Shown: piece after piece, positions 17,406 through 39,428 of the stretch | Position numbering within the stretch: position 1 is the first letter of the stretch | Layout of the letters: every line of letters begins with the position of its first letter | Origin: Minisyncoccota bacterium | GTDB taxonomy: Bacteria; Patescibacteriota; Minisyncoccia; Phycocordibacterales; UBA6065 | Direction of reading: 5' to 3' | Assembly: GCA_035546035.1 (NCBI GenBank) | Contig: DASZXC010000008.1 | Coordinates: 252,265-316,264 of the forward strand | Length of the DNA stretch: 64,000 nt | Position numbers and translations under genes: made by a program | Notes under the pieces: model-generated | Databases searched by the model: none | What the model was told of the DNA's origin: nothing | The model's input: the letters and a program-made list of their open reading frames with translations, nothing else

Positions 17406-17799
17406 ATGTTTTGAAGTTATCGAGTATGGCCTGCCAGCCCGCGCGCTGGAAATCGGCAGGGTGGACGTTCTCGGGATCGAACGTCTCGATGACGCGGACG
17501 CCGTCTGCCGTCGACTCGAACGATAGCGACACGGCGCGTCCGTCGTCTATGGTGTAGGCGATGGCCTTCTCCGTTTCGACGACGCTGTATATGCCGCCGA
17601 AATCGAACGATGCCGATCCGTCCTTGGCCGCCATGGTCGTGACGAACCTGCCGCCGACGCGCAGGTCGTTCGTCGCGGCAGGGCACATCCAGTCCTTCGA
17701 CGCGAATGCCCAGTTCTTGATGTGTTCAGGCTTGTTCCAAGCGTCCCACACGGTCTTTGGATCGGCTTTGACGATCGTTTGTACGGTTATTTTTTCCAT
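17371..17799 (-). CDS. SRPBCC-family protein (AHSA1 / activator of Hsp90 ATPase-like)
   Basis: MEKITVQTIVKADPKTVWDAWNKPEHIKNW typical AHSA1-domain N-terminus. Confidence 0.7.
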   Translation of the reverse strand: MEKITVQTIVKADPKTVWDAWNKPEHIKNWAFASKDWMCPAATNDLRVGGRFVTTMAAKDGSASFDFGGIYSVVETEKAIAYTIDDGRAVSLSFESTADGVRVIETFDPENVHPADFQRAGWQAILDNFKTYAENLSVSVVR

Positions 17800-18337
17800 A
17801 TGCGTCTATAGTATCACGGACGAAGTCCTTGATGTCGCCGGCACGCTCGCGAATGATGATAGAGAGCCATGCAGTATATCTTTCCGGGTCATTCGAGACG
17901 TCGCGGACGAGGTCGTCCAAGCCTATCCACCGATAATCGGACGCTTCTTCAGGATGAAGGCGGGGAGCGTCGTCCGAGACGCCGAAAAAGACATGGTCGA
18001 ATTCGTGTTCGGTAAGGCCACGGTCGAGCCTTACCTTATATACGAATGAAAACGCTTCTTGGAGGCGGCAATCTATGCCCATCTCTTCCCGAAGGCGCCG
18101 ATGGATGGCGGTTTCGATATCCTCGTCCTGACGCGGATGGCTGCAGCACGTATTCGTCCAAAGCCCGCCGGAATGATATTTGGCCGGGTGCCGTTTCTGT
18201 AGCAGGATATCGCCCTTGGAGTTGAATACGAATATCGAAAACGCTTCGTGAAGGCTGCCGATCTGGTGCGCTCGCAGTTTTCCGATGCCGCCGATCCTCG
18301 CGCCCGTGCCGTCTACGAGGTTGATAGTCTCTTCCAC
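17726..18337 (-). CDS. idi: Isopentenyl-diphosphate delta-isomerase, type 1 (NUDIX fold)
   Basis: HEAFSIFVFNSKGDILLQKR, WTNTCCSHP and EHEFDHVFFG motifs; 3-prime end overlaps next gene by 74 nt. Confidence 0.8.
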   Translation of the reverse strand: MEETINLVDGTGARIGGIGKLRAHQIGSLHEAFSIFVFNSKGDILLQKRHPAKYHSGGLWTNTCCSHPRQDEDIETAIHRRLREEMGIDCRLQEAFSFVYKVRLDRGLTEHEFDHVFFGVSDDAPRLHPEEASDYRWIGLDDLVRDVSNDPERYTAWLSIIIRERAGDIKDFVRDTIDAYGKNNRTNDRQSRSKDRVGRLEQA

Positions 18338-19490: not shown

Positions 19491-20005
19491 CGGTTCTCGA
19501 CGCTCTTTCGGAGCGATTGTATTTCGAGCGATAGGCTGACCCCGACGGCCGCGACGGCTGCCAGGAGCACGCCCGCATAGAACACGAGCCAGTTGAAATC
19601 AGATTCGACGTCAAAGCTCGCCGAAGCCTTGGCATCCGTCACCTGGGCATTCGAGACCCGCACCTCGATCGCGTGCCTCCCGGCCTTGGCTTTCTCCGGA
19701 ACGATGACGAAGTCAACGAACGACGCCTGGGTCTCGATCGCTTTGACGAACTCCGCATCGGCGATAGGCTTTCCGTCTTCGAGCACGCGGTACGATATCT
19801 GGAAATCGCGGCGCATGTCGTTTTCCGGGAACAGCGCCTCTATCTGGAAGTAAAGGCGCTCTCCGGCATGGACCGACGCATATTTTTCAGGGACATAGAC
19901 GGTGACCGACGCCGCGCGCGCCTTATCTGCGCCCAACGCCGCGCCGAAGACGGCGAATATCGCCGCGAGAAGAGCCGCCCTGATGATTGTCTTAGTCGTT
20001 TTCAT
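19487..20005 (-). CDS. Surface-operon gene 4: secreted protein with C-terminal TM anchor, hypothetical
   Basis: Signal peptide (MKTTKTIIRAALLAAIFAVFGAALGA), C-terminal helix; ATG 20005 chosen over TTG 20032; overlaps upstream gene stop by 14 nt. Confidence 0.45.
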   Translation of the reverse strand: MKTTKTIIRAALLAAIFAVFGAALGADKARAASVTVYVPEKYASVHAGERLYFQIEALFPENDMRRDFQISYRVLEDGKPIADAEFVKAIETQASFVDFVIVPEKAKAGRHAIEVRVSNAQVTDAKASASFDVESDFNWLVFYAGVLLAAVAAVGVSLSLEIQSLRKSVENR

Positions 20006-21002
20006 GCTTGATTCGGAAGACCATACTACCAATTACGGCTATAAGCGTTAGAGATGTTGCAAGGGCGAATCCATAGAGGATCATGAGCCGCGTCTCCCAG
20101 TGGAAGAGGTCGCGCTCGTCCGACGCGCTCGCGAGCACCCAGTAATTGTCGGCTTCAGGCCCCTGGCGAACGCCGGGAAGGACGATGTGGCGGTACGAGA
20201 ATACCCGTCCTTCTTCGGTGAAATTGCCCGCCGCCTCGTCTGAAAAGAGCCCTTTTACGACTGCTTCGGGGTAGAGCTCGGGAAGATACGACGACAGTTC
20301 CTTTCCGTTCTTCGATGCCAGGAATTTGCCGTCATGGTCGGCGAGGAATACCACTTCGTTTACGCGTTCGGCTCCGCGGATTTCGTCCAGGACGTATTTG
20401 AGGTCGAGCGTGAGCGCCAGGTATCCGTGCACGATGCCGTCGTATTCGACGGGAGCCATGATGTGGATGAAGGGCGTCCTGGTGCCGTCGGGGAACGTGT
20501 AGTCGAGGAGTCCCGATATCTGTATGTCGGTGCTGCTCGATGACCGCAGGTCGTCGAGGAGGTTCCTGAATTGCGGCTCTTCGTCTATGAACGATGCGAT
20601 AGAGTCGCTGGCCTCTGAATAGTCGTCGGCGACGAATCGGAAAGACTGGCCTTTGATAGGTTCGTAATAGACGTGGCAGTATTCGCGGTGAGAGGCGACG
20701 AAGGCTTTGAGGCGCTTTTCGAACGTAGCCTTGCTCACGGGCGATGCCGACGCATGGGCGGCGATGAGATCGGACATCCAGGCTACTTCGTCCCGCGCGT
20801 CTATGGCGAACCGTTCGAGCGACCGGGACAGGGAATCGAGCCTGTCTCCGGCGGTGTCGAGCGTCGCCGCGCGGGTCAGGCTGGCCGCCTGTTCGTACGC
20901 CAGGTACGCATGCAATGAAATAGAGCATGCGAGGACTATGAGGAGCGACAAAGCGATCCTTTTCGACGCATGGCTGTTAAAGATCCTTTTACCAGTTTTC
21001 AT
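19992..21002 (-). CDS. Surface-operon gene 3: bitopic membrane protein with large extracytoplasmic domain, hypothetical
   Basis: N- and C-terminal TM helices flanking about 270-aa domain; 14-nt overlap with upstream gene. Confidence 0.5.
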   Translation of the reverse strand: MKTGKRIFNSHASKRIALSLLIVLACSISLHAYLAYEQAASLTRAATLDTAGDRLDSLSRSLERFAIDARDEVAWMSDLIAAHASASPVSKATFEKRLKAFVASHREYCHVYYEPIKGQSFRFVADDYSEASDSIASFIDEEPQFRNLLDDLRSSSSTDIQISGLLDYTFPDGTRTPFIHIMAPVEYDGIVHGYLALTLDLKYVLDEIRGAERVNEVVFLADHDGKFLASKNGKELSSYLPELYPEAVVKGLFSDEAAGNFTEEGRVFSYRHIVLPGVRQGPEADNYWVLASASDERDLFHWETRLMILYGFALATSLTLIAVIGSMVFRIKHEND

Positions 21003-22188
21003 ACTTTTTCTTTTGATTTCTCCTCTTTACGGCCGCTAGTCCGTAATAGCGGTGGATGAACCAGGTAATAGCCGATATGATGGCCGCGATAAGCAGATAC
21101 CAGGGCAGTCTGCATCCGAACCACGCGAGAATGGCGACATGATCGACGAGCCATTCGAACGGCCACCAGAGGCCGCACATCATTCCCGTGCCGACGACGT
21201 TGAATCGCGCGTTCAGGGTCTCTCGCGAGCTCGTGCCGTACGTCACGTCGAGCGTGAGCCAGTACGATCCCGGTTCGAGGCCGAGCTCCGTCATGCGCTT
21301 GTTATAGACGATCTGGGTTTCGACGGACGTCGTTGCGGTCTCGGTGCGGCGGGTCGCGCCCGACTCGTCCTTGATGGAGAAGAGCATCGTCGCCGGAGTG
21401 CGGTCCGTGCCGAAATTGGTGAACGTGACGCGCGAGACGAGGTCGTCGCCGACGTCTATATGGTCGGGATCGATCGCGAGCGTGATGTCGAAGAGGAAGC
21501 GGGGAATAGATGCCGCCGTCGGTTCGCCGATCCCGCGCTTTGCCAGCACCGTCGCGGCCGCGAGCGCTTCAGGCGGAGCCGCCGTCGGAAGGATGATCGT
21601 CGTAGGCGCTGCGAGCACGCCTGATGACAGGCCCGGATTCGACGGATTATTCTGGGGAGCGTTTTGCAGGTTAGGGACGTCGCTTTTCGTGCCTGTTCCG
21701 CCGCCTCCGCCAGTCGGCGTTGTCGGTGGCGTCGCCGGAGGCGTAGCGGCAGGTTGCCAGTATGTTTTGACCTTGAAATCAGATGAGCCGCACGACGAAG
21801 TGTTGTCGCAGTTAAGGCTGATCTGCCCGGTAACGCTCGAATTTGCGTATCCGTGAAAGAATCCCTGCGAGTCTATCGTCGCGTTGGAAAAGTCTATGTA
21901 GCCGGAGCTCTCGCCCCAGGCATATCCCGACAGGTCCCCGTGAGCGTCGTTCGCGACATATGTCGACCCTGTCGGCGCGAGGCTTATCCAGCCCAGATTC
22001 TCGCTCCAGACATATCCGGTGAGCTTGGAATCCGTCACTTGGGCATTGCCCTCGTTCGTCCCGAAATTGAGCCAGCCCGCTTTTTCGCTCCATGCGTACG
22101 GATATGACGGATCTATTCCTCCGCCCGCGGCAAATGCGAATGCAGGGAAGAGAAGGGCTAGGAAGAGCGCGATGCGGAGAGTTTTCAT
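20989..22188 (-). CDS. Surface-operon gene 2: secreted protein with W-rich repeats, Pro/Thr linker and C-terminal TM
   Basis: Signal peptide; three repeats of form YAWSEKAGWLNFG / GYVWSENLGWISL / GYAWGESSGYIDF; PATPPATPPTTPTGGGGG linker; C-terminal hydrophobic anchor. Confidence 0.55.
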   Translation of the reverse strand: MKTLRIALFLALLFPAFAFAAGGGIDPSYPYAWSEKAGWLNFGTNEGNAQVTDSKLTGYVWSENLGWISLAPTGSTYVANDAHGDLSGYAWGESSGYIDFSNATIDSQGFFHGYANSSVTGQISLNCDNTSSCGSSDFKVKTYWQPAATPPATPPTTPTGGGGGTGTKSDVPNLQNAPQNNPSNPGLSSGVLAAPTTIILPTAAPPEALAAATVLAKRGIGEPTAASIPRFLFDITLAIDPDHIDVGDDLVSRVTFTNFGTDRTPATMLFSIKDESGATRRTETATTSVETQIVYNKRMTELGLEPGSYWLTLDVTYGTSSRETLNARFNVVGTGMMCGLWWPFEWLVDHVAILAWFGCRLPWYLLIAAIISAITWFIHRYYGLAAVKRRNQKKKYENW

Positions 22189-22189
22189 G

Positions 22190-25150
22190 TTATTGGACCA
22201 CGATGTAATTCCATTTATACGTTGCGGCGCCGCTGATGGTCACGCCAAGGCCGGTCACCGTAAAGCCTGTCGTGTTCGAGTTCACGTACAGGTTCAGGGC
22301 CGTAAGGCCGAGAGGGAGCTGTGCGGCGGCCGAGCTCGCCGGCGTAAGGACGACGAACGGCGCCGTGCCATAGGGCGTAGCGAATGTCAGCGTGACGAGC
22401 GCCCCCAATCCCAGGACGCCTCCTGAACCCAGCGTGAACGTGATCTCGCCCGCTGTGTCCGTGCCGCGCACCACGACGGAACCTCCGGAGCCAAGGGTGA
22501 GGGCCGCGCCTGCTGACGCGCTCGGCGTTCCGCCCTGGCCTTTGAGGTGGACGACCGATGCCGTGCCGCCGACGGAGAGCAGATCGTTCGGCGTGGACGA
22601 TCCTACGCCGACCTTGCCCGCGCTCGAGATAGTCATGGTCGAAGTGCCCGAGACGGTACTGCCATTCATGGCGTAATATGCCATCTGTCCGGCGAGGCCC
22701 GGAGAGACGACCGTCGATGACGCTAGGCCAAGCGACGACGTCGCGACCCATGCTGGCGATCCGCCGACGAGGGAGAGTATCGAACCGTTCGTCGTCGCGG
22801 AAAGTCTTGAAAGAGTCCCTGCGCCCGATGCATAGAGGATGTCGCCGACCGAATACGTCGTCTGTCCCGTGCCGCCGTGGCCCGCGTCTACGGCCGTACC
22901 GTTCCATATTCCCGCCGTTATGGTGCCCAGGGTCGTTATGGACGTCTGGCCGACATATGTCGGCGCGATATCCACTGACGGATTGCCCGATACGCCGTCG
23001 CCGTTCGTCAAGGTGATGCGGTTCGATGTGCCCTGGATCGTGCGCGCGGCATATGTGCCTGCGCCCGTGCGGACCAGCATTCCCGCCGTTCCTACGGCGC
23101 CGAGATTATCGAGGGCCGCGCCGTTGGCGACGCCGTATCCGGCGAGCGATGTCGGCGTTCCGGTAATTGATGACCACGTCGTCGAAGCATTAACGGTGAA
23201 AAGGGTCGAAGTCGCCACGGATACCCATGCCGATCCGTTCCAGGACAATATGTTTCCCGACGTTCCGCCCGCGGCATGGGCGATCGTTGACGAGCCGCTA
23301 ATGTACGACGCTACCTGGCTGTTGCTATAGAATTTATTATTCCCTTCGGTGATATCATCGGTGGTGATGCCGGTGAAATTGGCGTTCAGCGTGTTCCCCG
23401 ACCATGACAAGTGCGTGCCGGCCGTTATGCGCGCCGATGGGGATTGATAGAACGACGCCCATTCGGTCGTCGAAGCGACCAAAGGTATGGTGCGGCCCGA
23501 TGCGACCGATATGGTGTCGCCCGTGCGTGCGAGAGGGAATGAAAACAAGAGTGGCGATTCATACGTTCCTCCCGCGGCGAAAAGCGACGACGTCGCGACT
23601 GAAACCCATGCTGTGCCGTTCCAGGATAGGAGATTGCCCGAAGTCCCTCCCGCCGCGTGAGCTATTGTCGAAGAGCTGTTTATATATGTAGCGACTTGGC
23701 CGTTGCTGAAATATTTATTGGTGCCCTCGGGTATATCATCCGTCGTAATGCCTATGAAGCTTGCATTCAACGTGTTGCCGCTCCAAGACAGATGAGTTCC
23801 GGCGGTGATTCGTGATGACGGATTCTGAAGGAAGACATTCCATTCAGACGTTGAAGCCTGAAGCGGAATCGTATATCCCGCCGCAAGCGCGACAGAATTA
23901 GCTGAACGCGAAAGAGGAAACGAGAACGACAGAGGCAGTTCATAGTCAGTGCCCGATTGTGCCGCAGAGACGTTTCCCGATCCGTCGGCTTTGATGATCC
24001 CCGATACGGCGCCCAGATCCGCGCCGCCGCTATTCGATATATTAAGCGACGACGTCGCGACCCATGCAGGCGATCCGCTCACTATGGAAAGGATTTGGCC
24101 ATTCGAGCCTCCTGACGACAATCCGGTACCGCCGTGCGCGATGCCCAGAACCCCTGTCATGTGGCTTATGTCCAGAGCGCTTTCATCGACGGAGAACGTC
24201 GTCCCTGCGAGGTTCAATCCCGAACCCGCAGAATAAGCGATGCCTCCGCCCGTGACGCCGAGGGATGAAGTGGCGATCCATGTCGGCGCGCCCGCGACGA
24301 CAGACAGCACTTGGCCGTTCGATCCGACAGATGAAAGTCCGGTACCTCCATGCGCCGTCCCGAGGACGCCCGTCATATTGGCGATATTGAGAGCGCTTTC
24401 ATTTACCGAAAACGTCGTGCCGACGAGGCTCAGACCCGAACCTGCGGAATATACCGTGCCGCTGCTCGATACGCCCAGCGTCGTCGTCGAAACCCAGGTC
24501 GGCGCGCCGGATACGATTTTCAGGACCTCGCCTTCGTTTCCGTTTGGGAACGATGCGACTGTCGTCGGACCCGATGCATAGAGGAGCGCATTCGACGCGA
24601 ACGAAGTCTGTCCTGTGCCGCCTTTCGCGACGGGAAGGACTCCGCCTATGAGCGACAGGTCGAGCTGCGATTGATTGACCGAGAATACCGAGCCGACCAG
24701 CGTCAGTCCGGTTCCCGCGCTGTAAGTATTGGTCGTCGAGCCGGTCGTCGAAGCGAATGCCGTCGGATCGAGCCACATCGGTACGCCGCCCGATATGGTG
24801 AGCACCTGTCCGTCAGTGCCGACATGGAGCGCTGAAAGCGTATTGGCTGACGATGCGTAGATCACGTCGCCCGACGCATATGAATTGAGGCCGGTTCCGC
24901 CTTGGCCCGCAGAGAGAGGCGTCGTCAGGCCGGAAAGGGACGTAATATCGCCGTTCGCGGCCTTGGCGGCGTAATTGAATTGGACCGTGCAGTTGGTCGT
25001 GCTCGGAAGGCAATTCGGCGTCAGCGTTTCGGCCGGATTGTACGCGCTTCCCGGCGGAGCAGCGAGGGCGGCAAGCTGGCTTCCTCCGAACGAAGCGATT
25101 CCAAGCGCGAAAACATAAAGCCCCGCGCGCACGAATGTCCTGATTCTCAT
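22190..25150 (-). CDS. Surface-operon gene 1: 986-aa secreted repeat protein (tail-fibre-like GGTG repeats)
   Basis: Signal peptide MRIRTFVRAGLYVFALGIASFGGSQLAALA; more than 8 copies of about 45-aa repeat (...HGGTGLSS.GSNGQVLS.V.G.P.W..TSSLG...); two about 130-aa near-identical repeats (ELPLSFSFPLSRSAN... / ESPLLFSFPLARTGD...) also visible as DNA direct repeats 23340-24060. Confidence 0.7.
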   Translation of the reverse strand: MRIRTFVRAGLYVFALGIASFGGSQLAALAAPPGSAYNPAETLTPNCLPSTTNCTVQFNYAAKAANGDITSLSGLTTPLSAGQGGTGLNSYASGDVIYASSANTLSALHVGTDGQVLTISGGVPMWLDPTAFASTTGSTTNTYSAGTGLTLVGSVFSVNQSQLDLSLIGGVLPVAKGGTGQTSFASNALLYASGPTTVASFPNGNEGEVLKIVSGAPTWVSTTTLGVSSSGTVYSAGSGLSLVGTTFSVNESALNIANMTGVLGTAHGGTGLSSVGSNGQVLSVVAGAPTWIATSSLGVTGGGIAYSAGSGLNLAGTTFSVDESALDISHMTGVLGIAHGGTGLSSGGSNGQILSIVSGSPAWVATSSLNISNSGGADLGAVSGIIKADGSGNVSAAQSGTDYELPLSFSFPLSRSANSVALAAGYTIPLQASTSEWNVFLQNPSSRITAGTHLSWSGNTLNASFIGITTDDIPEGTNKYFSNGQVATYINSSSTIAHAAGGTSGNLLSWNGTAWVSVATSSLFAAGGTYESPLLFSFPLARTGDTISVASGRTIPLVASTTEWASFYQSPSARITAGTHLSWSGNTLNANFTGITTDDITEGNNKFYSNSQVASYISGSSTIAHAAGGTSGNILSWNGSAWVSVATSTLFTVNASTTWSSITGTPTSLAGYGVANGAALDNLGAVGTAGMLVRTGAGTYAARTIQGTSNRITLTNGDGVSGNPSVDIAPTYVGQTSITTLGTITAGIWNGTAVDAGHGGTGQTTYSVGDILYASGAGTLSRLSATTNGSILSLVGGSPAWVATSSLGLASSTVVSPGLAGQMAYYAMNGSTVSGTSTMTISSAGKVGVGSSTPNDLLSVGGTASVVHLKGQGGTPSASAGAALTLGSGGSVVVRGTDTAGEITFTLGSGGVLGLGALVTLTFATPYGTAPFVVLTPASSAAAQLPLGLTALNLYVNSNTTGFTVTGLGVTISGAATYKWNYIVVQ

Positions 25151-25219: not shown

Positions 25220-25235
25220 GGTCAAGAAAAAGTCA
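25220..25235 (-). promoter_or_regulatory. Shared 16-bp motif, site 1 (coding-strand TGACTTTTTCTTGACC) about 70 nt upstream of surface-protein operon
   Basis: Identical 16-mer GGTCAAGAAAAAGTCA also at 28859-28874; direct repeat TGAC-N7-TGAC (11-bp periodicity) typical of OmpR/PhoB-family binding sites. Confidence 0.45.
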
Positions 25236-27197
25236 GCCGGCATAAGCTTCCAGAAACTGCATCATGGTCTCGCGGTCGGCGAGGGCTTTGCGCGCGGCGC
25301 TTTCAAGGGGCGTCAAAAGGGAGTTCAGATACGAATGCTCTTTGAGCGCCGGATTGGTTTCGAGAGACGATCGCGCTTTGTCCGCATGGAAGAGCACCGC
25401 CGCCGCGACGTCGCGTATGGTCTTGTCCCAGAAAACGGAACGGAGGGCAGACATGTCTTCGCTCAGGTCGCATTCGCGCTCGCCGGTCTTCGCTTTCCAC
25501 TGAGAAAGGCATCGAACGCTCGCTGGGTTGAAGAATCCGCGCTCGAGGTCCTTCTGCCAGTCATGAGCGTCGTCATTCAATTGCCGCGCGACGAGATAAT
25601 TCTTGAAAAAGGCGAGCAGGCTCGTTATCTCGCGGGAATCAGGGCTGAAACCGCGGCGGATGAGCATGGTGATCGGTCCCAATGCATGCCCGATCGACTT
25701 TTCGGCGATGACGTCGAGATTTTTATAGTCGGGAAGGCTTTCGACGTCGATTATCTTTCCGGCGAATCTGGTCTGGTGCCTTTCCCAGGCATTCGCTGAT
25801 TCGATCTTGTCCATGAGCGCCGTGAATACGCCGCGCTCCGCGGCCGGGATCATATCGGTATATATGTGCACGACCTCGCGGAGCATCATGTTCGCCAGCG
25901 GCACGTGCTCGGGTTCGCCTTCGTCGTCCAAAATGTCGTCGTATATGCGGTATGCGATCCAGCCGAACAGATTCGCGGCGCCGAGCGTGACTGCTTCGCC
26001 AGCGTCTGATTTTTCCCGTGCGGGCGGGACGCCGATCGATTTTTCGAAATGATAGGGAAGGAGCGTGATCTGCCGGCCCGGATCGCCGAGCGTGAGCATG
26101 CGTATGTAGCGGCCGAGCGATTCTATCTGCCGCATGCTCTGCCCGCCGCATCGGTTAGCGACCCTGTTCACGATCGCTTCATGGACCGAATCATCATACG
26201 TCCGGTCGTCCTGCGCGCGATCGTTCCGCGCCTTTATGTCTTGCGTGGCAGAATTCAATCGAACGTACATTGCCAGAGCTTCGACGCAGAACGCCGCGGT
26301 CAGAGCGGGCGCACCGCTGTACAGGATCGAGCTGCGCGCTTCTTCTATATAGATAGGGTCGGCTTTCCATTCGCGTTCGTCGCAGATCTGTTCAAGCCTT
26401 TTTGCCATGATTCCTAATCGCGAATCGTCTGCATGCCGGAAAGTGCCCGAATCGGCATATGTATACCCGGCCAGAGTCGTTAAAGCGCAGGCGGTTTCAA
26501 GCGCCGTATTGCAGAGTTCGTCTGTTTGCCGCAGGGCGACGATATCGGCGACGGCTTTTTCGGCGGCATTTTGCGGAATGCTTCGTTCCAAAAATCTGGC
26601 CATGAAATACAGCATGACCACGGGCGACGCATAATATTTTGACCGATACGTTCCCGTTTCTATGCGCGACAAACAGAGCGCTTTCAGATTCGGCAAAACG
26701 ATATGTTGCGTTTTCAGGAACGTTCCGATATTGGCATTCACGACCGGGTCGATATCGTGCCAGCGGCGTCGGTCCGCGTCAGGTACGATACCGGAGACGA
26801 GCCACGTCTCGTACGGGCCGCCCGGCTTCTCCTCGGCAGAAATCAGCGCTTCAGTGAATCCTGCCAGCGCCGCGCCGTCTATTTTTTCCGGCATGTATGC
26901 GGCCAACGCCTGCAACGCGCACGACGTATCGTCCAGGTCGTCGGGGTACGGCTTGGCCCGCGCCTCGTCGCAGTCGCGGCGCCAATAGTTCCATGTCCAT
27001 CGGGCGTTGCGCTCTTTTAATATGAATTCGCAGCCTTTGCGTATGATATCCGCCGCGACCGGTTCGTTCTGTACGCCGCGCAAGGCGAGCAATATAAGAG
27101 ACGTATGAAAGACATTATCAAACCCGCCGTCCTTCTTCTGCGAGGACTCGATATGGCGCAAGGCCTTCTGTATTGATCTTTGAGGATTGCTTTCCAT
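25233..27197 (-). CDS. Two-domain terpene-synthase-like protein: N-terminal prenyltransferase/squalene-cyclase repeat domain with DxDDT[AS]-like motif plus C-terminal isoprenoid-synthase-fold domain with two Asp-rich motifs
   Basis: N-term: QKKDGGF and EKPGGPYETW PFTB/QW-like repeats, DLDDTS (class II cyclase DxDDTA-like). C-term: YDDILDDE (DDxxD) and RQLNDDAHD (FQxxDDxxD-like) about 115 aa apart. Confidence 0.55.
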   Translation of the reverse strand: MESNPQRSIQKALRHIESSQKKDGGFDNVFHTSLILLALRGVQNEPVAADIIRKGCEFILKERNARWTWNYWRRDCDEARAKPYPDDLDDTSCALQALAAYMPEKIDGAALAGFTEALISAEEKPGGPYETWLVSGIVPDADRRRWHDIDPVVNANIGTFLKTQHIVLPNLKALCLSRIETGTYRSKYYASPVVMLYFMARFLERSIPQNAAEKAVADIVALRQTDELCNTALETACALTTLAGYTYADSGTFRHADDSRLGIMAKRLEQICDEREWKADPIYIEEARSSILYSGAPALTAAFCVEALAMYVRLNSATQDIKARNDRAQDDRTYDDSVHEAIVNRVANRCGGQSMRQIESLGRYIRMLTLGDPGRQITLLPYHFEKSIGVPPAREKSDAGEAVTLGAANLFGWIAYRIYDDILDDEGEPEHVPLANMMLREVVHIYTDMIPAAERGVFTALMDKIESANAWERHQTRFAGKIIDVESLPDYKNLDVIAEKSIGHALGPITMLIRRGFSPDSREITSLLAFFKNYLVARQLNDDAHDWQKDLERGFFNPASVRCLSQWKAKTGERECDLSEDMSALRSVFWDKTIRDVAAAVLFHADKARSSLETNPALKEHSYLNSLLTPLESAARKALADRETMMQFLEAYAG

Positions 27198-28653
27198 TTC
27201 CTCCTGGTGGATGAGCGCGAGGGAAGACGATGGTGAAATTCGAGCCTTCCCGCTCGACGCTTTTGACCGCTATGGTCCCTTTGAAATCTTTGACGACGAT
27301 GTCCTGCGCATTCGATAGTCCGATGCCCATCCCTCGGTGTCTCTCTTTGGTGGTGAAGAACGGATCGAATATCTTGCCGATGACGGCCGCCGATATGCCG
27401 CAGCCATGGTCTCGCACGATGATCTTGATATCGCCCTTGTTTTCGATCAGGCGCACGGCGACGATCCTCTGATCGAACGGCAATGCAGTATTGTTGTACG
27501 AATCGATCGCGTTCGATATGAGGTTTCCGATGACGTGCTGGAGCTTTGTCGGATTGCCGAACGTCGAAACGCGCTTGTCCGCCGCCCAGTCTATGCGGAC
27601 TTTCGTCTGCGCCGCTTTATACGAGAGAAGCGCCAATGCCTCTTCGATCTCGCCGTTCACCGAGAACTCTTCCTCATGGTCGGGCATGGTCAGCTGCTTT
27701 CGGACCGTCGTCACGAATCGCTCGAGCTTCCGCGAAGCCTGGACCGCCCGGCCGACGCTTTCCCTGATATCCTGCATATCGGGGTGGAGCGAATCCTTCA
27801 GATTGTTGACGTTCGCCGCCACCGCCGAAAGGGGATTCATCAGGTCGTGGAATATTCCCGACGACAGCCTGCCGAATTCGGCGAAATGATAGAGCTGCGC
27901 CAATTTTTCCGCCTGCGCCTGGCGCAATTCGCGGGTACGCTCGACGACCGTCGATTCGAGCGACTCGTTCTTCTCTATGAGCGCCCTTTCCGACCTTCGC
28001 GCCCGGGCGAGCGAGTTCTCTATGTCCTTGTTCGAAAGCCAGGCGATCAATTCGATAGCGAAGAAGAACAGGCAATATTTGATGACGTCTACGCTCTCGT
28101 GCGTCTCCTGCATCCATTTCGTGTCTATCGTGATGGCGCCCGCATCGCCCATGAACCTGCAGACGATGAGAGATATCATGACGATGGCGCTGAAGGCGAG
28201 GCTGAATCTAGTGCCGATGAGCGCCCCTGCCATGATGATAAGGAGCGCGTACATGAGGAGCGTGGACGGCAGGTCCGTGCCCCAGCGATAGACGCCGTAC
28301 GTCGTCGCGGCATAGAAGAACGTGATGGCGAAATACGAGACGAGGTCGAAATAGCCCTTGCGCGAAGCGATATATCCCGCGATGAACAGGGCGGGGAATA
28401 TGCTGAAAACGAAGAACGGTATGCCCTCGTATCCCGGCCCTGCTTCGATCTGGCTGATGAGGACGAGCGTATCGAGCGCGAGCAAGAGGCATATCGACCC
28501 TACGAGTATGACGTTCAGGATCGTCTCCCTGCGGCGGTCGTCTTCGGTCGTCGAGCGCGGCTCGAAGAATATCCGGTATAGAAAACGGATACTTCTTTTA
28601 AAGAAACGTTCGGAGCTTTGAGCGTCCTCGTTTTTCCGGAGAGAAGTATCCAT
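27118..28653 (-). CDS. Sensor histidine kinase (polytopic membrane sensor domain)
   Basis: Six N-terminal TM helices, HisKA H-box (IFHDLMNPLSAV), HATPase_c N/G1/G2 boxes (GNLISNAIDSY, DHGCGIS, GMGIGLS); 3-prime end overlaps next gene by 80 nt. Confidence 0.85.
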   Translation of the reverse strand: MDTSLRKNEDAQSSERFFKRSIRFLYRIFFEPRSTTEDDRRRETILNVILVGSICLLLALDTLVLISQIEAGPGYEGIPFFVFSIFPALFIAGYIASRKGYFDLVSYFAITFFYAATTYGVYRWGTDLPSTLLMYALLIIMAGALIGTRFSLAFSAIVMISLIVCRFMGDAGAITIDTKWMQETHESVDVIKYCLFFFAIELIAWLSNKDIENSLARARRSERALIEKNESLESTVVERTRELRQAQAEKLAQLYHFAEFGRLSSGIFHDLMNPLSAVAANVNNLKDSLHPDMQDIRESVGRAVQASRKLERFVTTVRKQLTMPDHEEEFSVNGEIEEALALLSYKAAQTKVRIDWAADKRVSTFGNPTKLQHVIGNLISNAIDSYNNTALPFDQRIVAVRLIENKGDIKIIVRDHGCGISAAVIGKIFDPFFTTKERHRGMGIGLSNAQDIVVKDFKGTIAVKSVEREGSNFTIVFPRAHPPGGNGKQSSKINTEGLAPYRVLAEEGRRV

Positions 28654-28887: not shown

Positions 28888-29556
28888 CTAATCGTCCTTT
28901 ATCTTGTATCCGCGGCCGGGAATGTTGTAGATCAGCTTTTCCCGCTTCTTTTCGAGCTTTTTGCGCAAGTTGACGATGTGTGTCTCTATGGTCTTCGAGA
29001 GGGGGTCGCTCTCCATATCCCAGACGTGCTCCATGATGGTGCCGCGCGATACGACTTTGCCCTTGTTGCGGAGGAGGAGCTCGAGGAGGGCGAATTCTTT
29101 CCTGGTGAGATACACGTCTATGCCGTTCTTGGTCACTTCCTGGCTTCCGGCATCGAGGAGCACGCCGCCCGCGGCGAACGTCGTCGGTTCGACTTTGTAC
29201 GTGCGGCGGAGCAGGGCGCGCATGCGCGATACGAGCTCCTGATGGGAATACGGCTTGGTGATATAGTCGTCGGCGCCGGAATCGAGGGCAAGCGCCTTGT
29301 CGTCCACGTGGGCATTGACCGAGAGCATCAGGATAGGGACGTGGCGCCCGACGCGGCGGATCTCCTGGCAGACTTCGAGACCGGTCTTTTTCGGCATCGA
29401 ATGATCCAGGATGATCAGGTCGTATTCGTTGGTGCGGGCCATGAACGAACCGGCCGCGCCGTCCGCCGCAGTGTCTACGGCAAAACATTCTGCCTGGAGT
29501 GTGGCTTTGAGGAGGTCTCTGGTCTCCGCTTGGTCGTCCACGACGAGTATCCTCAT
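28888..29556 (-). CDS. OmpR-family response regulator (receiver plus winged-helix DNA-binding domain)
   Basis: MRILVVDDQ, phospho-acceptor context LIILDHSMP, C-terminal trans_reg_C (RLELLLRNKGKVVSRGTI...NIPGRGYKI); start at ATG 29556. Confidence 0.85.
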   Translation of the reverse strand: MRILVVDDQAETRDLLKATLQAECFAVDTAADGAAGSFMARTNEYDLIILDHSMPKKTGLEVCQEIRRVGRHVPILMLSVNAHVDDKALALDSGADDYITKPYSHQELVSRMRALLRRTYKVEPTTFAAGGVLLDAGSQEVTKNGIDVYLTRKEFALLELLLRNKGKVVSRGTIMEHVWDMESDPLSKTIETHIVNLRKKLEKKREKLIYNIPGRGYKIKDD

Positions 29557-29651
29557 GGGATTAGTAGTGTTGCCCAAAGTATATACCACCAGGGGTTTTT
29601 GGCTATTTAGCCGTTATCCACGGCCCTCCGCGCCGTGCCGCTCCCGCTTCC

Positions 29652-29776: not shown

Positions 29777-31267
29777 ATGACACCCATAAAAACTCTCGAA
29801 GCGGCAGAGCATGCCGTTTCTCCGTCGGTTAAATTCACCGATCTGTCGTTGAGCGATTCGCTCCTCGGCGCTCTCAATAAGCATGACTTCGTCACCCCGA
29901 CGCCGATCCAGTCGCGCGTCATCCCTTTGGGCATCGAAGGCAAAGACATCATCGGCATCGCCCAGACCGGAACGGGCAAGACGCTCGGCTTCGGCATTCC
30001 TATGATCGAGCGCATCATCGCGGACAAGAACGCTCGCGGATTGGTGCTTTTGCCTACGCGCGAGCTTGCATTGCAGGTGGACGAGACGATCCGCAAGGTC
30101 GGCACCGGCCTCGGCATATATACTGCCGTCCTCATCGGCGGCGATTCGATGGGACGCCAGATCCGCGACCTTCGCGCCGGTCCCAATATCGTCATCGCGA
30201 CGCCAGGACGCTTGATAGACCATCTCGAGCAGAAGACGATCTCGCTCGACCGCGTCTCGATGCTCGTCTTGGATGAAGCGGACCACATGTTCGACATCGG
30301 CTTCATGCCGCAGATCAAGGAGATCGTGAAAAAGGTGCCGAAGACGCGCCAGACCATGCTTTTCTCCGCGACCATGCCCGAGCCGATCGCGAAATTAGCT
30401 ATGGAGCATATGCAGCTGCCGTTGCGTATCGAGGTCGCTCCTGCGGGCACGGCGAATAAGAACGTCGAACAGGAGATCGTCGTCGTCGAGCGTAAGGCCA
30501 AGTTCGGCTTGCTCTCCAAGCTCGTCGGCGAACATCAGGGCCAGCCGGTGCTCGTATTCACGCGCACCAAGCACGGCGCGAAGGAGATCGCGCGATCGCT
30601 CCGCGATTCCGGCATGACCGCTGCAGAGATTCATTCGAACCGCACGCTCGGCCAGAGGCGCGAGGCGTTGGACGGCTTCAAGAAGCATAAATATCAGGTC
30701 CTCGTGGCGACCGACATCGCGGCGCGCGGCATAGACGTCAAAGACGTCGCTCTCGTCGTCAACTACGATCTGCCTGAGCAGTCCGAAGACTATGTCCACC
30801 GCATCGGCCGTACCGGCCGCGCGGGCAAGGAAGGCAAGGCGGTTTCGTTCGCGACCCCGGACCAGAAGCGCGACATCATGGATATCGAGCGCCTTATAAA
30901 GAAAGAGATCCCTCGCAAGAGCCACGAAGGCGCGGCTATGTCCGAAAGCTCGTTCAGCGGCGGGTCTCGCGGTTACGGATCGCGCGGCGGACGCGGATTC
31001 GGTCGCGGAGGTTTCCGCGGCAGCAGGGGCGGTTTCCGCGGAGGTCCACGAAGCTTCGGCGGTCCTCGCGGCGGTCATTCGTCGCATTCTGCGCATGGCC
31101 ACTCGCATGGTCACGCAGGCCATACGGTAGGCTCTCATGGCGGCGCATCGCGCGGCCCTCGACGCGGTTTCAATTCAAAATATCCTCGACCTCTCAAGAC
31201 CGATCCTTCGAAGAAGGTAGAGCTCGGCACCGGTTACAGGCGCGTATTCAGGAAGGGCGTCCGATAA
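29777..31267 (+). CDS. DEAD-box ATP-dependent RNA helicase with C-terminal RGG/His-rich low-complexity tail
   Basis: Q-motif, Walker A AQTGTGKT, DEAD box (VLDEAD), SAT, HRIGRTGRAG; tail GGRGFGRGGFRGSRGGFRGG...HSSHSAHGHSHGHAGH. Confidence 0.9.
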   Translation: MTPIKTLEAAEHAVSPSVKFTDLSLSDSLLGALNKHDFVTPTPIQSRVIPLGIEGKDIIGIAQTGTGKTLGFGIPMIERIIADKNARGLVLLPTRELALQVDETIRKVGTGLGIYTAVLIGGDSMGRQIRDLRAGPNIVIATPGRLIDHLEQKTISLDRVSMLVLDEADHMFDIGFMPQIKEIVKKVPKTRQTMLFSATMPEPIAKLAMEHMQLPLRIEVAPAGTANKNVEQEIVVVERKAKFGLLSKLVGEHQGQPVLVFTRTKHGAKEIARSLRDSGMTAAEIHSNRTLGQRREALDGFKKHKYQVLVATDIAARGIDVKDVALVVNYDLPEQSEDYVHRIGRTGRAGKEGKAVSFATPDQKRDIMDIERLIKKEIPRKSHEGAAMSESSFSGGSRGYGSRGGRGFGRGGFRGSRGGFRGGPRSFGGPRGGHSSHSAHGHSHGHAGHTVGSHGGASRGPRRGFNSKYPRPLKTDPSKKVELGTGYRRVFRKGVR

Positions 31268-31309: not shown

Positions 31310-32832
31310 ATGGCCACCGACGTAGTACTGCGGTTCGACGAAGTGTCGTTCGAATACGGGCACAATAAGCCGATCCTCGACGAGGTGAGCTTTTCGGTGC
31401 GCCGCGGCTCGAAGATCACCATCATGGGCCAGAACGGCGCGGGCAAGTCGACGATATTCGGCATGATATTGGCGGCAGCGGGGCAGAATGCGGGCCAGGG
31501 TCAGACTACGCCGAAAATTACGAGTGGCAACATCCACATCACCCGCGGCCTTTCGATCGCCATCGCGCGGCAGGTCATTCCGCGACCGGAATTGGCGCTT
31601 TCCGTCAGGGACTTTTTCCAAAAAGCCCTCATGGACACGAATGGCGGCAAAAAGTGTACGATATCGACCCGCGCATGGACGAAGCGCTCGATGCGGTGAA
31701 CTTTCCATTGCCTGCGACGGGAAAGGACCGCGTTGTCAGCTCGTTCTCGGGCGGGCAGCAGGCGCGATTTTTGCTAGCTTCGGCCTTGGTCCAGAATCCG
31801 GATATCCTGTTGCTCGACGAGCCGACGAACAATCTGGACAAAGCGGGTATCGAGCACCTGACCGCATTCCTCAAAGCGTATCCGAAGACCGTCATCGTCA
31901 TTTCGCACGAGGCGGATTTCCTCAATTCATTCACGGACGGCGTCTTGTACCTGGATGTGCATACCAAGAAAGTCGAGCAGTATCAGGGCGACTATTATGA
32001 CGTGCTCAAAGACATAACTGCGCGCGTCGATCGCGAAAATCGCGCCAATGCGTTGCTCCAGAAAGAGATCCAGGCCAAGAAAGACCAGGCCAATGCATTC
32101 GCCATGAAGGGCGGCGGGCTTCGCTTGGTCGCCAAGCGCATGCGCGAGAAAGCCGAAGAGCTCGAAGAAGACATCGTCGAGGTGCGCAAGGAAGACAAGA
32201 CCATCAAGCCGTTCACCATTCCTGCGCAGCCTGAATTCACGGGCGTGATCATGGAGATCAAGGGATATAAGGTATTCAAGAACCATAAGCCGGTGAAAAG
32301 GACATGCGCGGTGAAATTGAAGCGCCGCCAGCACCTGCTTTTGAAGGGTCCGAACGGCATAGGGAAGTCGACGCTACTCGAAGCTTTGGCGACGGGCAAG
32401 AATTCAGATGGCAGCGCGAACGAAGGCGCGACGATCGCATCGGGCGCGCGCGTCGGATACTATCGCCAGGATTTTTCGACCCTGAATTTCGAAGATACGG
32501 TGCACGAATCGCTGCTGTCGGCGTCGGCGACGCATATCGAACAGCATATCCGCGCGGTCGCGGCAGGATTTTTGATACATGCAGACATGATGGATACCAA
32601 GATCGGCGCATTGTCCGAAGGCCAGAAAGGCCTCGTGGCATTTGCGCGATTGGTCCTGCAGAAGCCCAGCCTCCTCATTTTGGACGAGCCTACGAACCAT
32701 ATTAATTTCAGGCACATTCCTGTGATCGCCAAGGCGCTGGATGAATATGAAGGTGCGATGATATTGGTGAGCCATGTGCCGGAATTTGTGTCGCAAATTC
32801 GGATCGATGAGACGTTGGATTTGGAGGGGTAG
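31310..32832 (+). pseudogene. ABC-F family ATPase (two ABC domains) interrupted by a +1/-1 frame change in an A5 run (31649-31653); frameshifted gene, possible sequencing error
   Basis: ORF 31310-31699 (Walker A GQNGAGKST) and ORF 31654-32832 (signature SGGQQAR, second Walker A GPNGIGKST, LSEGQKG, ILDEPTNH) are contiguous in different frames; one extra A restores NGGKKVYDIDPR. Confidence 0.7.
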
Positions 32833-32998
32833 TCAGGTTGTCTCATTTTTTAATATAACGTATTATCCGTCTGTGAACTTATGGCTCCACACTGAGGAGA
32901 GGCCAAGAATAAACACTATTAAATTAATAGTGGCTAGGTTTGCTTCAGATAGAAATTTAAAATCCGTCTTTTCTGGCAATGAGAAAATCTGGCCAATA

Positions 32999-34264
32999 AT
33001 GAAAGACGGTTTGTTTACATTTAAATACAAGATTGAGGGTATTAAATGTGAAAATGTTGAAAATATTTTTATAACCATTATTAGCGGTTCTTCAAGTTTT
33101 ACAGATTATCTGGTCTTTTATTCAGAAAACCCGCCGCTTGTAACTGATTCACCTCTTTATCTCATTGAAGAGACTAAGACTGGTGATAGTGAGAGCCGTA
33201 ACACGGCAGCGTATCAACGTTCTTCAAAATTTGTCTATGCCAGCTTCTTTTATCCCAAGGTTCCTAAAATCATGTTGTACAGCCTAAGGGTTGCGCAGAG
33301 AAAGGAATCGACCTCAACTTCTGTCTTCGGTACAAAACTTCTGGCGACGCTAGGTGTTGAGATTTTGGGCAGAATATTACAGAAAGACGCCTACTCAGCA
33401 TTTTCAAATATTGATGAATTGATCGAGCTTAAGAATGAAATGTCCCTTCCTCATTACGGGCTTGCTGTGCGGATAAATAAGGTAGGGGATGTAATTAAAA
33501 TATCTGCAAGGCTTGAAAAATCGGGCTATCTTTCTCATGATCCCAATATCGGTATGACGACAGTGATCAGTGCGTGTCTTAGAAAATTAGGTTGGAAGGG
33601 CCGCATCGTCATAACTGATCATGGCTTGGCGAGTCAAAAAAATGTAGGAGTAAGAAACAAATTTATTGCTATTGCCAATCAGCTCGGTGTTGAGCTCGAA
33701 AATCTAACCATACCCAGGGTTTCTCTTCATGGAGAATATTGGAAGGTTGAGGCAAACAAGGAGAAAATAGGAACAATTTTTACTAGTATTCTCTGCGAAG
33801 AATTTACGGACTCGGTTGCTATCTATGAAAATCATGGAGGCTGTGAAAGGGGCTATTTTATTTCTGAAAAAAATAAAGAAAATATAGAATATCTTGCTGT
33901 CCCAAAATTTTCAGATAGAGAAAAATACAAGGCGGGGGACAAAAGTTATATCATTTCTATTCCCGATCTAGTCCTCTACGATAGAAAAAGAGACATAATC
34001 ATTAATGCGGAAGGCAAGGTTTTTGCAAAGCGGGAGGAGGGTTATAAGGAAATAGGTGGGTTTGACTCGTTCGAAGATAAATTTATTAAAAAGTATTATC
34101 CGGGCTCAGAAATTTCAAGGACGCTCATACTTTCAGGCAGTAAAGACGAGGCGATTGATAATCCAATTACAGGCTTACTCTTAAATCAAGACGGATTAAT
34201 CGTCTTGGGGGAAAAGACACCTCTCTTGTTCAAGGAGGCTGTGGCGAATCTACTTTCTTTGTAG
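32999..34264 (+). CDS. Putative Type II restriction endonuclease of low-GC R-M island (two PD-(D/E)xK-like motifs)
   Basis: Low-GC coding; motifs TDSPLYLIEETK and IPDLVLYDRKRDIIINAEGK; convergent with and overlapping 3-prime end of methyltransferase gene; start at first ATG inside AT-rich region rather than the extended ORF start 32774. Confidence 0.4.
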   Translation: MKDGLFTFKYKIEGIKCENVENIFITIISGSSSFTDYLVFYSENPPLVTDSPLYLIEETKTGDSESRNTAAYQRSSKFVYASFFYPKVPKIMLYSLRVAQRKESTSTSVFGTKLLATLGVEILGRILQKDAYSAFSNIDELIELKNEMSLPHYGLAVRINKVGDVIKISARLEKSGYLSHDPNIGMTTVISACLRKLGWKGRIVITDHGLASQKNVGVRNKFIAIANQLGVELENLTIPRVSLHGEYWKVEANKEKIGTIFTSILCEEFTDSVAIYENHGGCERGYFISEKNKENIEYLAVPKFSDREKYKAGDKSYIISIPDLVLYDRKRDIIINAEGKVFAKREEGYKEIGGFDSFEDKFIKKYYPGSEISRTLILSGSKDEAIDNPITGLLLNQDGLIVLGEKTPLLFKEAVANLLSL

Positions 34265-36423: not shown

Positions 36424-36445
36424 TATATCAATAATGATTGATATA
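36424..36445 (-). promoter_or_regulatory. Palindromic operator abutting start codon of HTH-methyltransferase gene (C-box-like)
   Basis: TATATCAA-taatga-TTGATATA; a third TTGATAT copy at 36463-36469. Confidence 0.5.
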
Positions 36446-36532
36446 ATGAACCAGAGTGCCTGTTGATATCCTTGTCTTCTTCTTAAGCACTCTTTATTTT
36501 CCAGAACTCAGATCTCATATATAATCTTCTCT

Positions 36533-37225: not shown

Positions 37226-37255
37226 GGCGGCGCATTTACTGATAACGCTGAAATA

Positions 37256-39421: not shown

Positions 39422-39428
39422 TCTGCCT

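Follow-up and report, generated by a model that had tools for sequence, protein, structure and literature searches.

A soluble two-domain (beta-alpha) terpenoid synthase-like protein family encoded as the third cistron of a two-component operon across Patescibacteria

The window analyzed here, a stretch of 64,000 nucleotides from a Minisyncoccota bacterium (contig DASZXC010000008.1), carries on its minus strand a gene for a 654-aa, two-domain (beta-alpha) terpenoid synthase-like protein (25233..27197), with a strong ribosome-binding site (AGGAGG) located 5 nt 5' of the ATG at 27197. An earlier note, made from the letters of the window, had quoted several motifs from this open reading frame, all of which were located in its translation: QKKDGGF at residues 20-26, PDDLDDTS at 85-92, GGPYETW at 126-132, YDDILDDE at 419-426, and RQLNDDAHD at 538-546. 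These are not chance matches, because P85, D87, D89, T91, G127, P128, Y129, and W132, together with D420, D424, Q539, D542, D543, D546, and D550 in the C-terminal half, were invariant across 50 homologs sharing 26-44% identity. The protein is predicted to be soluble, with zero transmembrane segments, and it contains no gamma domain. In its AlphaFold model (pLDDT 91.9, pTM 0.87), both domains adopted the folds that the note had claimed, rather than those of LanC or A2M. The proposed pairing of a class II cyclase-like N-domain with a class I/prenyl-synthase-like C-domain was thus supported by profile and fold evidence, although no PDB chain was found that superposed on both domains at once.

The start of the gene overlaps by 80 nt the 3' end of a gene encoding a 511-aa sensor histidine kinase (27118..28653, minus strand; HATPase_c, 7.8e-21), the N-terminal half of which is a multi-pass membrane region with at least four strong transmembrane segments at residues 48-206 and without a large external loop. 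The first gene of the module encodes a 233-aa OmpR-family response regulator (28888..29589, minus strand; Response_reg, 7e-28; Trans_reg_C, 1e-23). The note had correctly placed the gene beside a two-component system; it is, however, not merely adjacent but overlaps the kinase gene within the same operon. This arrangement recurred among the homologs: an orthologous multi-pass histidine kinase lay immediately 5' of the family gene in 75 of 79 loci, most commonly with a 4-nt overlap at the junction, the motifs of its transmembrane region were conserved across loci, and both the kinase and the response regulator were found upstream in 59 of the 70 loci with enough flanking sequence. Across the candidate phyla radiation (CPR), the gene holds a conserved third place in an operon that begins with the response regulator and the histidine kinase. 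Unbiased clustering of neighbors revealed no recurrent gene besides this pair and a polyprenyl synthase, the latter being encoded no more than 6 kb away in 13 of 86 loci and as the next gene downstream in 8 (about 10%). The operon context, absent from the first sequence-only reading, was the strongest contextual signal that we obtained. Outside the operon, a type 1 isopentenyl-diphosphate isomerase gene (idi; 17726..18337, minus strand; NUDIX, 2.7e-21) was confirmed by the NF002995 equivalog (150.9 bits; cutoff, 127) at a distance of 6.9 kb, and its presence indicates that the organism handles IPP/DMAPP.

The family comprises 1,769 clusters at 50% identity from 329 GTDB species, almost all of them Patescibacteria. 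Across the representatives of these clusters, the C-domain occupied approximately residues 340-650 of proteins of ~640 aa, and the beta-alpha fusion is the rule in the family. For representatives of ~375 aa consisting of the C-domain only, an origin from standalone or split genes was weighed and dismissed, as the two that were checked start at the ends of 1.1-1.3 kb contigs. Pfam misses the family, for which database names are "hypothetical" or "prenyltransferase/squalene oxidase repeat-containing," and about 15 members carry the precomputed label PF28380. Open-access full text yielded no earlier account of the family, nor any beta-alpha cyclase or any terpene cyclase encoded in a CPR two-component operon.

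The N-terminal half (approximately residues 1-315; 26253..27197, minus strand) forms a beta domain with an (alpha/alpha)6 barrel fold, a predicted monodomain class II terpene cyclase. The window protein by itself gave no significant domain match against Pfam, NCBIfam, or with phmmer, and Pfam SQHop_cyclase remained below threshold, whereas our family profile matched the cyclase domain of AsDMS. The match to AsDMS reached E=1.9e-17 with the family profile (1e-4 for AstC) compared with only E=0.26 for the window protein alone, and the homology was thus revealed by the family profile only. This half follows the MstE/AsDMS type, with one beta domain instead of a beta-gamma pair. LanC, A2M thioester, and glycosidase toroids were ruled out for it by the family-profile and fold comparison. 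The sequence DLDDTS, previously read as a class II DxDD-type motif, held up in the alignment: the PDDLDDTS region aligned with PDDLDTT of AsDMS, in which D323, the middle Asp, is the catalytic acid (PMC12232559). Within the acid motif D86-D87-L88-D89-D90-T91 (26925..26942, minus strand), D89 is the predicted general acid; D87, D89, and T91 were present in all 50 homologs and D90 in 49. Among 159 full-length representatives drawn from the 50%-identity library, the motif was missing in only about 2, and the general-acid Asp was kept in about 157. Invariant aromatic residues (W67, Y71, W72, Y129, W132, W146, Y188, and Y189) were also found in the beta domain of the 50 homologs.

The C-terminal half (residues 352-654; 25236..26144, minus strand) is an alpha domain with the all-alpha trans-isoprenyl diphosphate synthase fold, bearing a FARM-like motif on helix D, a SARM-like motif on helix H, and a degenerate IPP site. 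The first motif, D420-D421-I-L-D424 (DDxxD; 25926..25940, minus strand), sits at the C-terminal end of a long helix (residues 399-423 in the AlphaFold model); position 421 was D in 43 homologs and N in 7, and D(D/N)xxD occurred in about 156 of the 159 representatives. The second, D542-D543-A-H545-D546-W-x-x-D550 (25548..25574, minus strand), follows R538-Q539 and extends DDxxD to DDxxDxxxD, a pattern found in 158/159 representatives. The assignment of the two Asp-rich stretches as FARM/SARM-like and the expectation that the acidic motifs of both halves would be kept among homologs were thereby both upheld. Further conservation among the 50 homologs was seen for H545 (48), R440 (45), position 500 (always K or R), R538 (R in 45, K in 5), and the aromatic residues W413, Y416, Y419, W471, W547, F589, and W590. 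The IPP-binding GGKxxR loop and the RRG following the FARM were absent at positionally equivalent sites in the 50 homologs, which instead carry G-(K/Q/R/H)-Q-I-T-L-L-P and DDxLDxEGxPxxLP (a positional mapping made by eye), whereas canonical synthases encoded beside family members carry GGKxxR and HDDxxDxxxxRRG.

Sequence comparison of the alpha domain with characterized families revealed no statistically significant link. Pfam polyprenyl_synt (PF00348) matched 3 of the 50 members at E values of 0.032 or worse, and Terpene_synth_C matched 2 of 50. Against 12 neighboring polyprenyl synthases, hhalign gave a probability of 3.7% with a weak local alignment in the SARM region, where the second motif aligned with AFQIQDD...D(I)xEGK of these genuine synthases; a forced global alignment to the same 12 was meaningless. 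A C-domain profile searched against PDB sequences returned nothing significant, the top-ranked spliceosomal p14 and LegK7 being noise. Comparison with the metal motifs of class I cyclases showed that DDxxD is present and that D542/D546/D550 lie at i, i+4, and i+8, which is the spacing of (N,D)Dxx(S,T)xxxE, but the residues are not those of NSE/DTE. A terpene-synthase-type alpha fold (PF03936 / PF19086) was not the closest structural relative, and the C-domain showed neither the fold nor the profile of SQS/PSY (PF00494). The fold and profile evidence effectively rules out that this half is some unspecialized helical bundle whose acidic motifs arose by chance.

Comparison with known systems delineated what is particular to this family. 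The drimenol synthase AsDMS (Aquimarina spongiae; PDB 9mhs) has an N-terminal HAD phosphatase partner, whereas the 654-aa protein has a C-terminal trans-IPPS-fold alpha domain and no HAD domain, the profile match being confined to AsDMS residues 261-523 (the cyclase domain). AstC represents the fungal HAD-like terpene cyclases of the same kind. The GGPYxTW loop is family specific, and the phosphate-binding R368 and R370 of AsDMS are replaced by W146 and D148. MstE (Scytonema merosterolic acid synthase; PDB 6sbb; identity ~15%) is a standalone protein of ~350 aa that acts on a meroterpenoid substrate and uses DxD, in contrast to the DxDD and covalently attached alpha domain found here; other monodomain class II cyclases among the closest systems were 6ij1 and 8paj. 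Relative to trans-IPPS (FPPS, GGPPS, and solanesyl-/decaprenyl-PP synthases; PF00348), the family lacks GGKxxR, RRG, and the His upstream of the FARM, has the post-SARM GK loop deleted, and has conserved His and Trp residues added. This residue pattern is presumably nearer to that of IDS-derived terpene synthases and non-IPP prenyltransferases than to that of elongating enzymes; MoeN5 and Ord1 are non-elongating trans-IPPS offshoots.

Bifunctional enzymes of the PvCPS type and of the DCS type (plant, fungal, and rarely bacterial) likewise carry a class II site with DxDD and an alpha site with Asp-rich motifs on one polypeptide, using them for sequential isoprenoid chemistry (PMC12393454, PMC11469919). 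Both contain a beta-gamma didomain, with the alpha domain of PvCPS being N-terminal and a true GGPP synthase and that of DCS/TPS enzymes being a terpene-synthase-type cyclase. To our knowledge, neither type has been reported from CPR or as part of a two-component operon. The N-to-C order that the note had likened to plant and fungal diterpene synthases is indeed beta-alpha, but the likeness is loose because the N-terminal half is a single beta domain without gamma, unlike their three-domain gamma-beta-alpha architecture. In Bacillus, YtpB (tetraprenyl-beta-curcumene synthase) and SqhC ionize a long polyprenyl diphosphate at its head and then proton-cyclize its tail to yield a membrane terpenoid. 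This is a functional analogy only, as these are separate proteins, SqhC is beta-gamma, and no homology of the C-domain to YtpB was detected, a Pfam DUF2600 search giving no match. The sesquarterpene pathway is cited in PMC7306690.

From the folds, beta-domain homology, motif conservation, IPP-motif loss, operon structure, and taxonomic spread established above, we infer the catalysis, step order, substrate, and physiological role of the family as follows. With moderate confidence, we favor a soluble bifunctional terpenoid synthase of a new beta-alpha architecture, predicted to combine class II and class I-type steps. In the beta domain, the invariant D89 of the DxDD motif would protonate the terminal C=C (or an epoxide) of an isoprenoid chain, triggering ring formation within the aromatic-lined barrel. 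The alpha domain, which may have descended from or converged on the trans-prenyl-diphosphate synthase fold, appears to keep a full allylic-diphosphate/Mg2+ site (DDxxD, DDxxDxxxD, a K/R-S resembling "KT," an R-Q resembling "FQ," and R440) and would hold that isoprenoid by its diphosphate head. Because the basic IPP-binding residues are lost, this domain would ionize or remove the head group in a class I-type step rather than elongate the chain, with the substrate presumably supplied by a separate polyprenyl synthase. Both sites could work in succession on one substrate, either with class II cyclization followed by diphosphate removal (copalyl/drimenyl type) or with the class I step preceding class II, as in the Bacillus YtpB-to-SqhC route. 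Because the gene is probably co-transcribed, and often translationally coupled, with those of a dedicated OmpR-type regulator and a histidine kinase of the intramembrane type, terpenoid production would be tied to a membrane-borne signal, and the likeliest role is to adjust the condition of the cell membrane or to report on it. Several points count against this bifunctional-synthase reading, namely the alignment of W146/D148 with R368/R370 of AsDMS, the nonsignificant sequence link of the alpha domain, the by-eye positional mapping of the IPP-site residues, and the close translational coupling with a kinase, which is commoner for accessory signaling proteins than for regulated enzymes.

A prenyltransferase-cyclase fusion resembling the fungal PvCPS, in which the C-domain would make FPP/GGPP from DMAPP and IPP and the N-domain would cyclize it to drimenyl-PP/copalyl-PP released with its diphosphate intact, seems unlikely. 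The IPP-site motifs that such an enzyme would need (GGKxxR and RRG) are missing here, although the genuine synthases of neighboring genes in the same genomes have them, Pfam polyprenyl_synt essentially misses the C-domain, and the canonical synthase directly downstream in about a tenth of the loci would be redundant. In addition, the invariant H504, the H545 present in 48/50 homologs, and several pocket Trp residues are not features of elongating synthases.

We also consider it quite unlikely that the protein is an accessory sensor of a three-component system, which would bind an isoprenoid diphosphate (e.g., a prenyl lipid carrier or a prenyl compound from the host) and modulate the kinase, with catalysis absent or secondary and the pockets serving as ligand sites. 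In two-component systems, accessory proteins are commonly encoded as a third cistron overlapping the kinase gene. The near-universal third-cistron position of the family, the stop/start overlap with the kinase gene in many loci, the kinase's lack of an extracytoplasmic sensor domain, and the absence of any other conserved gene partner all fit this explanation. However, about 157/159 representatives keep the general-acid Asp and 158/159 keep the full Asp triads, a conservation of catalytic residues in both domains that exceeds the usual need of ligand binding alone, and each domain is an entire enzyme fold whose pocket is lined with aromatic residues.

Membership in the plant/fungal alpha-beta-gamma "DCS" diterpene synthases, converting GGPP to copalyl diphosphate and then to a diterpene, would agree with the order of beta before alpha along the chain and with the presence of both DxDD and DDxxD, and recent work has identified bifunctional enzymes of this type in a small number of bacteria (PMC11469919, PMC12164552); we nevertheless regard it as highly improbable, given the single beta domain. 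That the protein is not a terpenoid enzyme at all, its N-terminal half being another (alpha/alpha)6 toroid and its C-terminal half a helical bundle with fortuitous acidic motifs, is hardly credible and effectively refuted by the AsDMS profile match and the fold evidence.

If the bifunctional-synthase reading is true, the family would represent a new terpene-enzyme architecture, in which an alpha domain derived from IPPS is joined rigidly to a beta-only class II cyclase without gamma, and a large divergent family overlooked by current Pfam-based genome mining. As a natural beta-alpha didomain with both active sites seemingly intact, it bears on how the alpha, beta, and gamma domains came to be assembled in modern terpene synthases. 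It would also be uncommon for such an enzyme to be the constant third member of a two-component operon. CPR/Patescibacteria are thought to be host-dependent for lipids. A survey of polycyclic triterpene synthesis reported no SHC in CPR (PMC7306690). The conserved place of the gene in a sensor-kinase operon suggests that these bacteria make or sense an undescribed cyclic terpenoid, and a cyclase wired to a membrane-embedded kinase offers a testable route to whether ultra-small CPR symbionts make their own membrane or signaling terpenoids. We tentatively entertain, as a possible though doubtful extension, a lineage-wide CPR module in which the kinase/regulator pair controls, and perhaps partners, a beta-alpha enzyme making a cyclic terpenoid from a polyprenyl diphosphate, with a hopanoid-like membrane-ordering or signaling product. 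If true, such a module would constitute a terpenoid-based membrane-homeostasis or signaling circuit unlike any described in bacteria.

The gene at 25233-27197 on the reverse strand encodes, as its longest open reading frame, a protein of 654 aa, and ccAGGAGGaaATG 5' of the ATG at 27197 favors this start over that of the GenBank entry for the identical protein, called at 642 aa and annotated as a "hypothetical protein" in a Candidatus Paceibacterota MAG. All of the motifs quoted in the earlier note were found in the 654-aa protein. In an alignment of 50 full-length homologs (26-44% identity), the invariant positions were N70, Y71, P85, D87, D89, T91, G127, P128, Y129, W132, W146, D150, and Y189 in the N-terminal half and G412, W413, D420, D424, E472, S501, Q539, D542, D543, D546, and D550 in the C-terminal half. 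The Asp-rich motifs were likewise retained among 159 full-length representatives of the library clustered at 50% identity, with DDxxDxxxD present in 158 and D(D/N)xxD in approximately 156, and the class II Asp motif was truly lost in only about two (P0057 and P0102). Such conservation across the family far exceeds chance.

No Pfam domain was detected in the N-terminal half from the single sequence, which yielded only faint hints, one from TIGR01787 squalene cyclase (E = 0.025) and one from the PDB entry for drimenol synthase. The family profile matched the cyclase domain of AsDMS, the drimenol synthase of Aquimarina spongiae (PDB 9mhs), with an E value of 1.9e-17 (profile positions 35-308 against chain residues 261-523) and the fungal HAD-like terpene cyclase AstC at 1e-4, bearing out the class II cyclase-like N-domain that had been proposed from the sequence. 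PDDLDDT of the target aligned with PDDLDTT of AsDMS, placing invariant D89 at the position of D323, the middle Asp of the motif and the general acid of that enzyme (PMC12232559). The AsDMS cyclase is a single beta domain, with the monodomain class II cyclase MstE (PDB 6sbb) as its nearest structural relative (PMC12232559). Because residues 1 to ~315 of the target fit one toroid only, its N-terminal half is a beta-only domain rather than a beta-gamma didomain, a class II cyclase by the membership tests and with an intact acid motif. When the profile alignment was read against the AsDMS structure (PMC12232559), however, the phosphate-binding R368 and R370 fell on invariant W146 and near-invariant D148 of the target, a difference that bears on mechanism; R415 aligned with a variable position in the family and Y416 with Y188. 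The beta-domain subfamily also occurs alone or in other fusions (P0289, P0295-P0297 of 315-362 aa, P0302 of 433 aa, P0051, and P0298): P0051 (961 aa; motif PDDLDCT) joins it to an Asp/Arg beta-hydroxylase domain, and P0298 (433 aa) to a short NHase_alpha-like segment.

For the C-terminal half, no significant sequence relative was found in the PDB, even with the domain profile, and Pfam searches over 50 members returned polyprenyl_synt for three of them, at E values no better than 0.032, and Terpene_synth_C for two. In the AlphaFold model, D420-D421-x-x-D424 closes the long helix 399-423, as the first Asp-rich motif (FARM) of trans-prenyl synthases closes helix D, and helix 522-552 carries R538-Q539-x-x-D542-D543-x-H-D546-W-x-x-D550 in the way that helix H carries FQxxDDxxD. 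The prenyl-synthase-like C-domain of the earlier note, with its FARM/SARM-type motifs, is upheld in fold and in the conservation of both motifs. Position 500, always K or R in the 50 homologs, and invariant S501, 42 residues ahead of the second Asp motif, echo the "KT" element of trans-prenyl synthases, and A468-N469-x-W-E472 echoes their "GQxxD". Comparison by hhalign with 12 genuine polyprenyl synthases from neighboring genes gave only a weak local alignment (ARQLNDDAHDW..DLxRG against AFQIQDDI..D(I)xEGK), which falls where expected, in the second Asp motif region. These neighbors all carry GGKxxR ~42 residues ahead of FARM, together with HDDxxDxxxxRRG, whereas GGKxxR and RRG are absent at the equivalent positional offsets in the target family, where G-(K/Q/R/H)-Q-I-T-L-L-P and DDxLDxEGxPxxLP occur instead. 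Aromatic residues (W413, Y416, Y419, W471, W547, F589, and W590) enrich the predicted pocket, along with invariant H504 and H545. The alpha domain agrees with trans-IPPS enzymes in fold and motifs and departs from them in the IPP site and in profile, and it does not qualify as a canonical class I cyclase; its diphosphate/Mg2+ site is intact and its IPP site degenerate. Positional mapping suggests that it keeps the full Mg2+/allylic-diphosphate site and no longer binds IPP, so that it would bind and probably ionize a prenyl diphosphate instead of elongating one. A true prenyltransferase-cyclase is unlikely given this missing IPP site.

A long helix (297-350 in the AlphaFold model) links the last barrel helix to the alpha domain, and the spacer from the end of the beta domain to the QITLLP element is fairly constant (median 62 residues, mostly 57-68), consistent with a fixed arrangement of the domains. 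The C-domain profile recovered 1,769 representative clusters, 1,218 of them below 1e-30, and nearly all matches were proteins of ~630-670 aa with the domain at approximately residues 340-650; two short representatives that were checked proved to be contig-end fragments. The beta-alpha fusion is the rule in the family, or "obligate". A precomputed Pfam label, PF28380.1, attached to P0014, P0039, P0212, and ~12 other members, is not reproduced by the local Pfam-A and could stem from a newer model that includes a portion of the family.

A histidine kinase gene (27118-28653, reverse strand) lies directly upstream of the target gene, preceded by an OmpR-type response regulator gene (28888-29589, reverse strand). 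The two-component neighbors pointed out earlier are real, and more than adjacent, as the target gene begins within the non-conserved 3' tail of the kinase gene, with an overlap of 80 nt. Gene calls at six loci of distant homologs showed the regulator-kinase-target order again in five, all but L009. Of 86 loci examined by tblastn, 79 had enough flank, and in 75 of these a same-strand kinase homolog ended directly upstream, most commonly with a 4-nt overlap; kinase and regulator were both present in 59/70. These kinases, of ~470 aa, carry conserved motifs all through the membrane-spanning N-terminal half, including family-specific ones such as RREFILN, WG.DLP..LL.YAL, and WLSNREIE, and this region matched no known sensor domain; their sequences mark them as orthologs rather than arbitrary kinases. 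At least four strong transmembrane segments fall within residues 48-206 of the window kinase, which lacks a large external loop; transmembrane segments are absent from the target protein. Throughout the candidate phyla radiation (CPR), a conserved module of three genes thus unites regulator, multi-pass kinase, and target, tying the target gene to a dedicated intramembrane-type two-component system. Unbiased clustering of all neighboring ORFs yielded one other recurrent partner, a canonical polyprenyl synthase, near the family gene in 13/86 loci. In eight loci, about 10%, this synthase gene follows the family gene directly and in the same orientation (L005, at 9903-10922, and L013, L019, L021, L024, L054, L070, and L077, all with GGKxxR and HDDxxDxxxxRRG); its product is a candidate substrate supplier. 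No polyprenyl synthase occurs within the 64-kb window. The idi gene reported earlier is bona fide, at 6.9 kb from the target gene rather than 8 kb.

The supposed surface operon 3' of the target gene (19992-25150, reverse strand) does adjoin it but is not conserved beside family members in other genomes. It comprises a 986-aa protein with long internal repeats (recurring "..HGGTGLSS.." and "SAGSGLSL.GTTFSV.ES") and no Pfam or NCBIfam match, a 399-aa ORF without a match, and a 336-aa protein weakly matching dCache_1. A DEAD-box helicase (29777-31267, forward) diverges from the regulator gene, and L003 and L009 likewise have one close to the module. A low-GC island at 32700-37400 (GC 0.37-0.45 against 0.55-0.60 elsewhere) holds a pair of neighboring genes for Dam-type N6-adenine methyltransferases (34250-35314 and 35314-36423, reverse), one with an HTH_26 domain, and ORFs without Pfam match at 32774-34264 (forward) and 36515-37402 (reverse); the island probably represents a restriction-modification or mobile element gained by horizontal transfer. 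The window further encodes a 3-demethylubiquinone-9 3-methyltransferase-family (glyoxalase-like) protein (16929-17405, reverse), a LexA-like S24 peptidase (38470-39036, forward), and an MliC lysozyme-inhibitor domain protein (39156-39815, forward).

Relatives were found in 329 genomes when one genome per GTDB species was scanned, and the best 80 of these were almost all Patescibacteria/CPR, from both major CPR branches and Saccharibacteria (Paceibacterota, Moraniibacteriota, Levyibacteriota, Daviesbacteria, Doudnabacteria, Shapirobacteria, Nomurabacteria, Microgenomates, Saccharibacteria, and CPR2). Approximately 20 loci are labeled "uncultured Gammaproteobacteria bacterium" (L015, L017, L020, L031, L045, L054, and others), and L021, L042, and L049 carry the labels Methylomirabilota, Sulfotelmatobacter, and Vitreimonas. 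Loci with non-CPR labels share the kinase-linked neighborhood of the CPR loci and lie on contigs of sizes typical of CPR genomes (a single one of 1.3 Mb, for example), and these labels may be taxonomic mislabels. No SHC was found in CPR in a published survey (PMC7306690); searches based on Pfam would not have seen the present family.

We favor, with slightly better than even confidence, a bifunctional terpenoid synthase that would carry out two steps on a single isoprenoid made by another synthase: the beta domain would initiate ring formation by protonation at the distal end and the alpha domain would handle the diphosphate head with metal. By analogy with labdane-type pathways and with AsDMS and AstC, which pair a cyclase with a diphosphate-removing domain, the class II step may come first, followed by diphosphate removal. 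Since the diphosphate-binding arginines of AsDMS are replaced by Trp and Asp, a neutral substrate with the class I step first, like YtpB before SqhC in Bacillus, would be equally compatible. Sensing by the kinase must take place in or at the membrane, and co-transcription with this kinase suggests that the product of such a bifunctional synthase is a membrane terpenoid made according to membrane state, or a signal. That the protein is instead an accessory sensor of the two-component system would fit its tight translational coupling to the kinase; we consider this unlikely, slightly more so than a true prenyltransferase-cyclase.

Both domains are members of known superfamilies; neither the searchable literature nor the solved structures yielded the combination of a cyclase made of the beta domain alone, an alpha domain derived from IPPS with no gamma domain, CPR-wide spread, and a fixed place in a two-component operon. 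The family would contribute a further architecture to the evolution of terpene synthases and opens a testable question on terpenoid lipids or signals in CPR.
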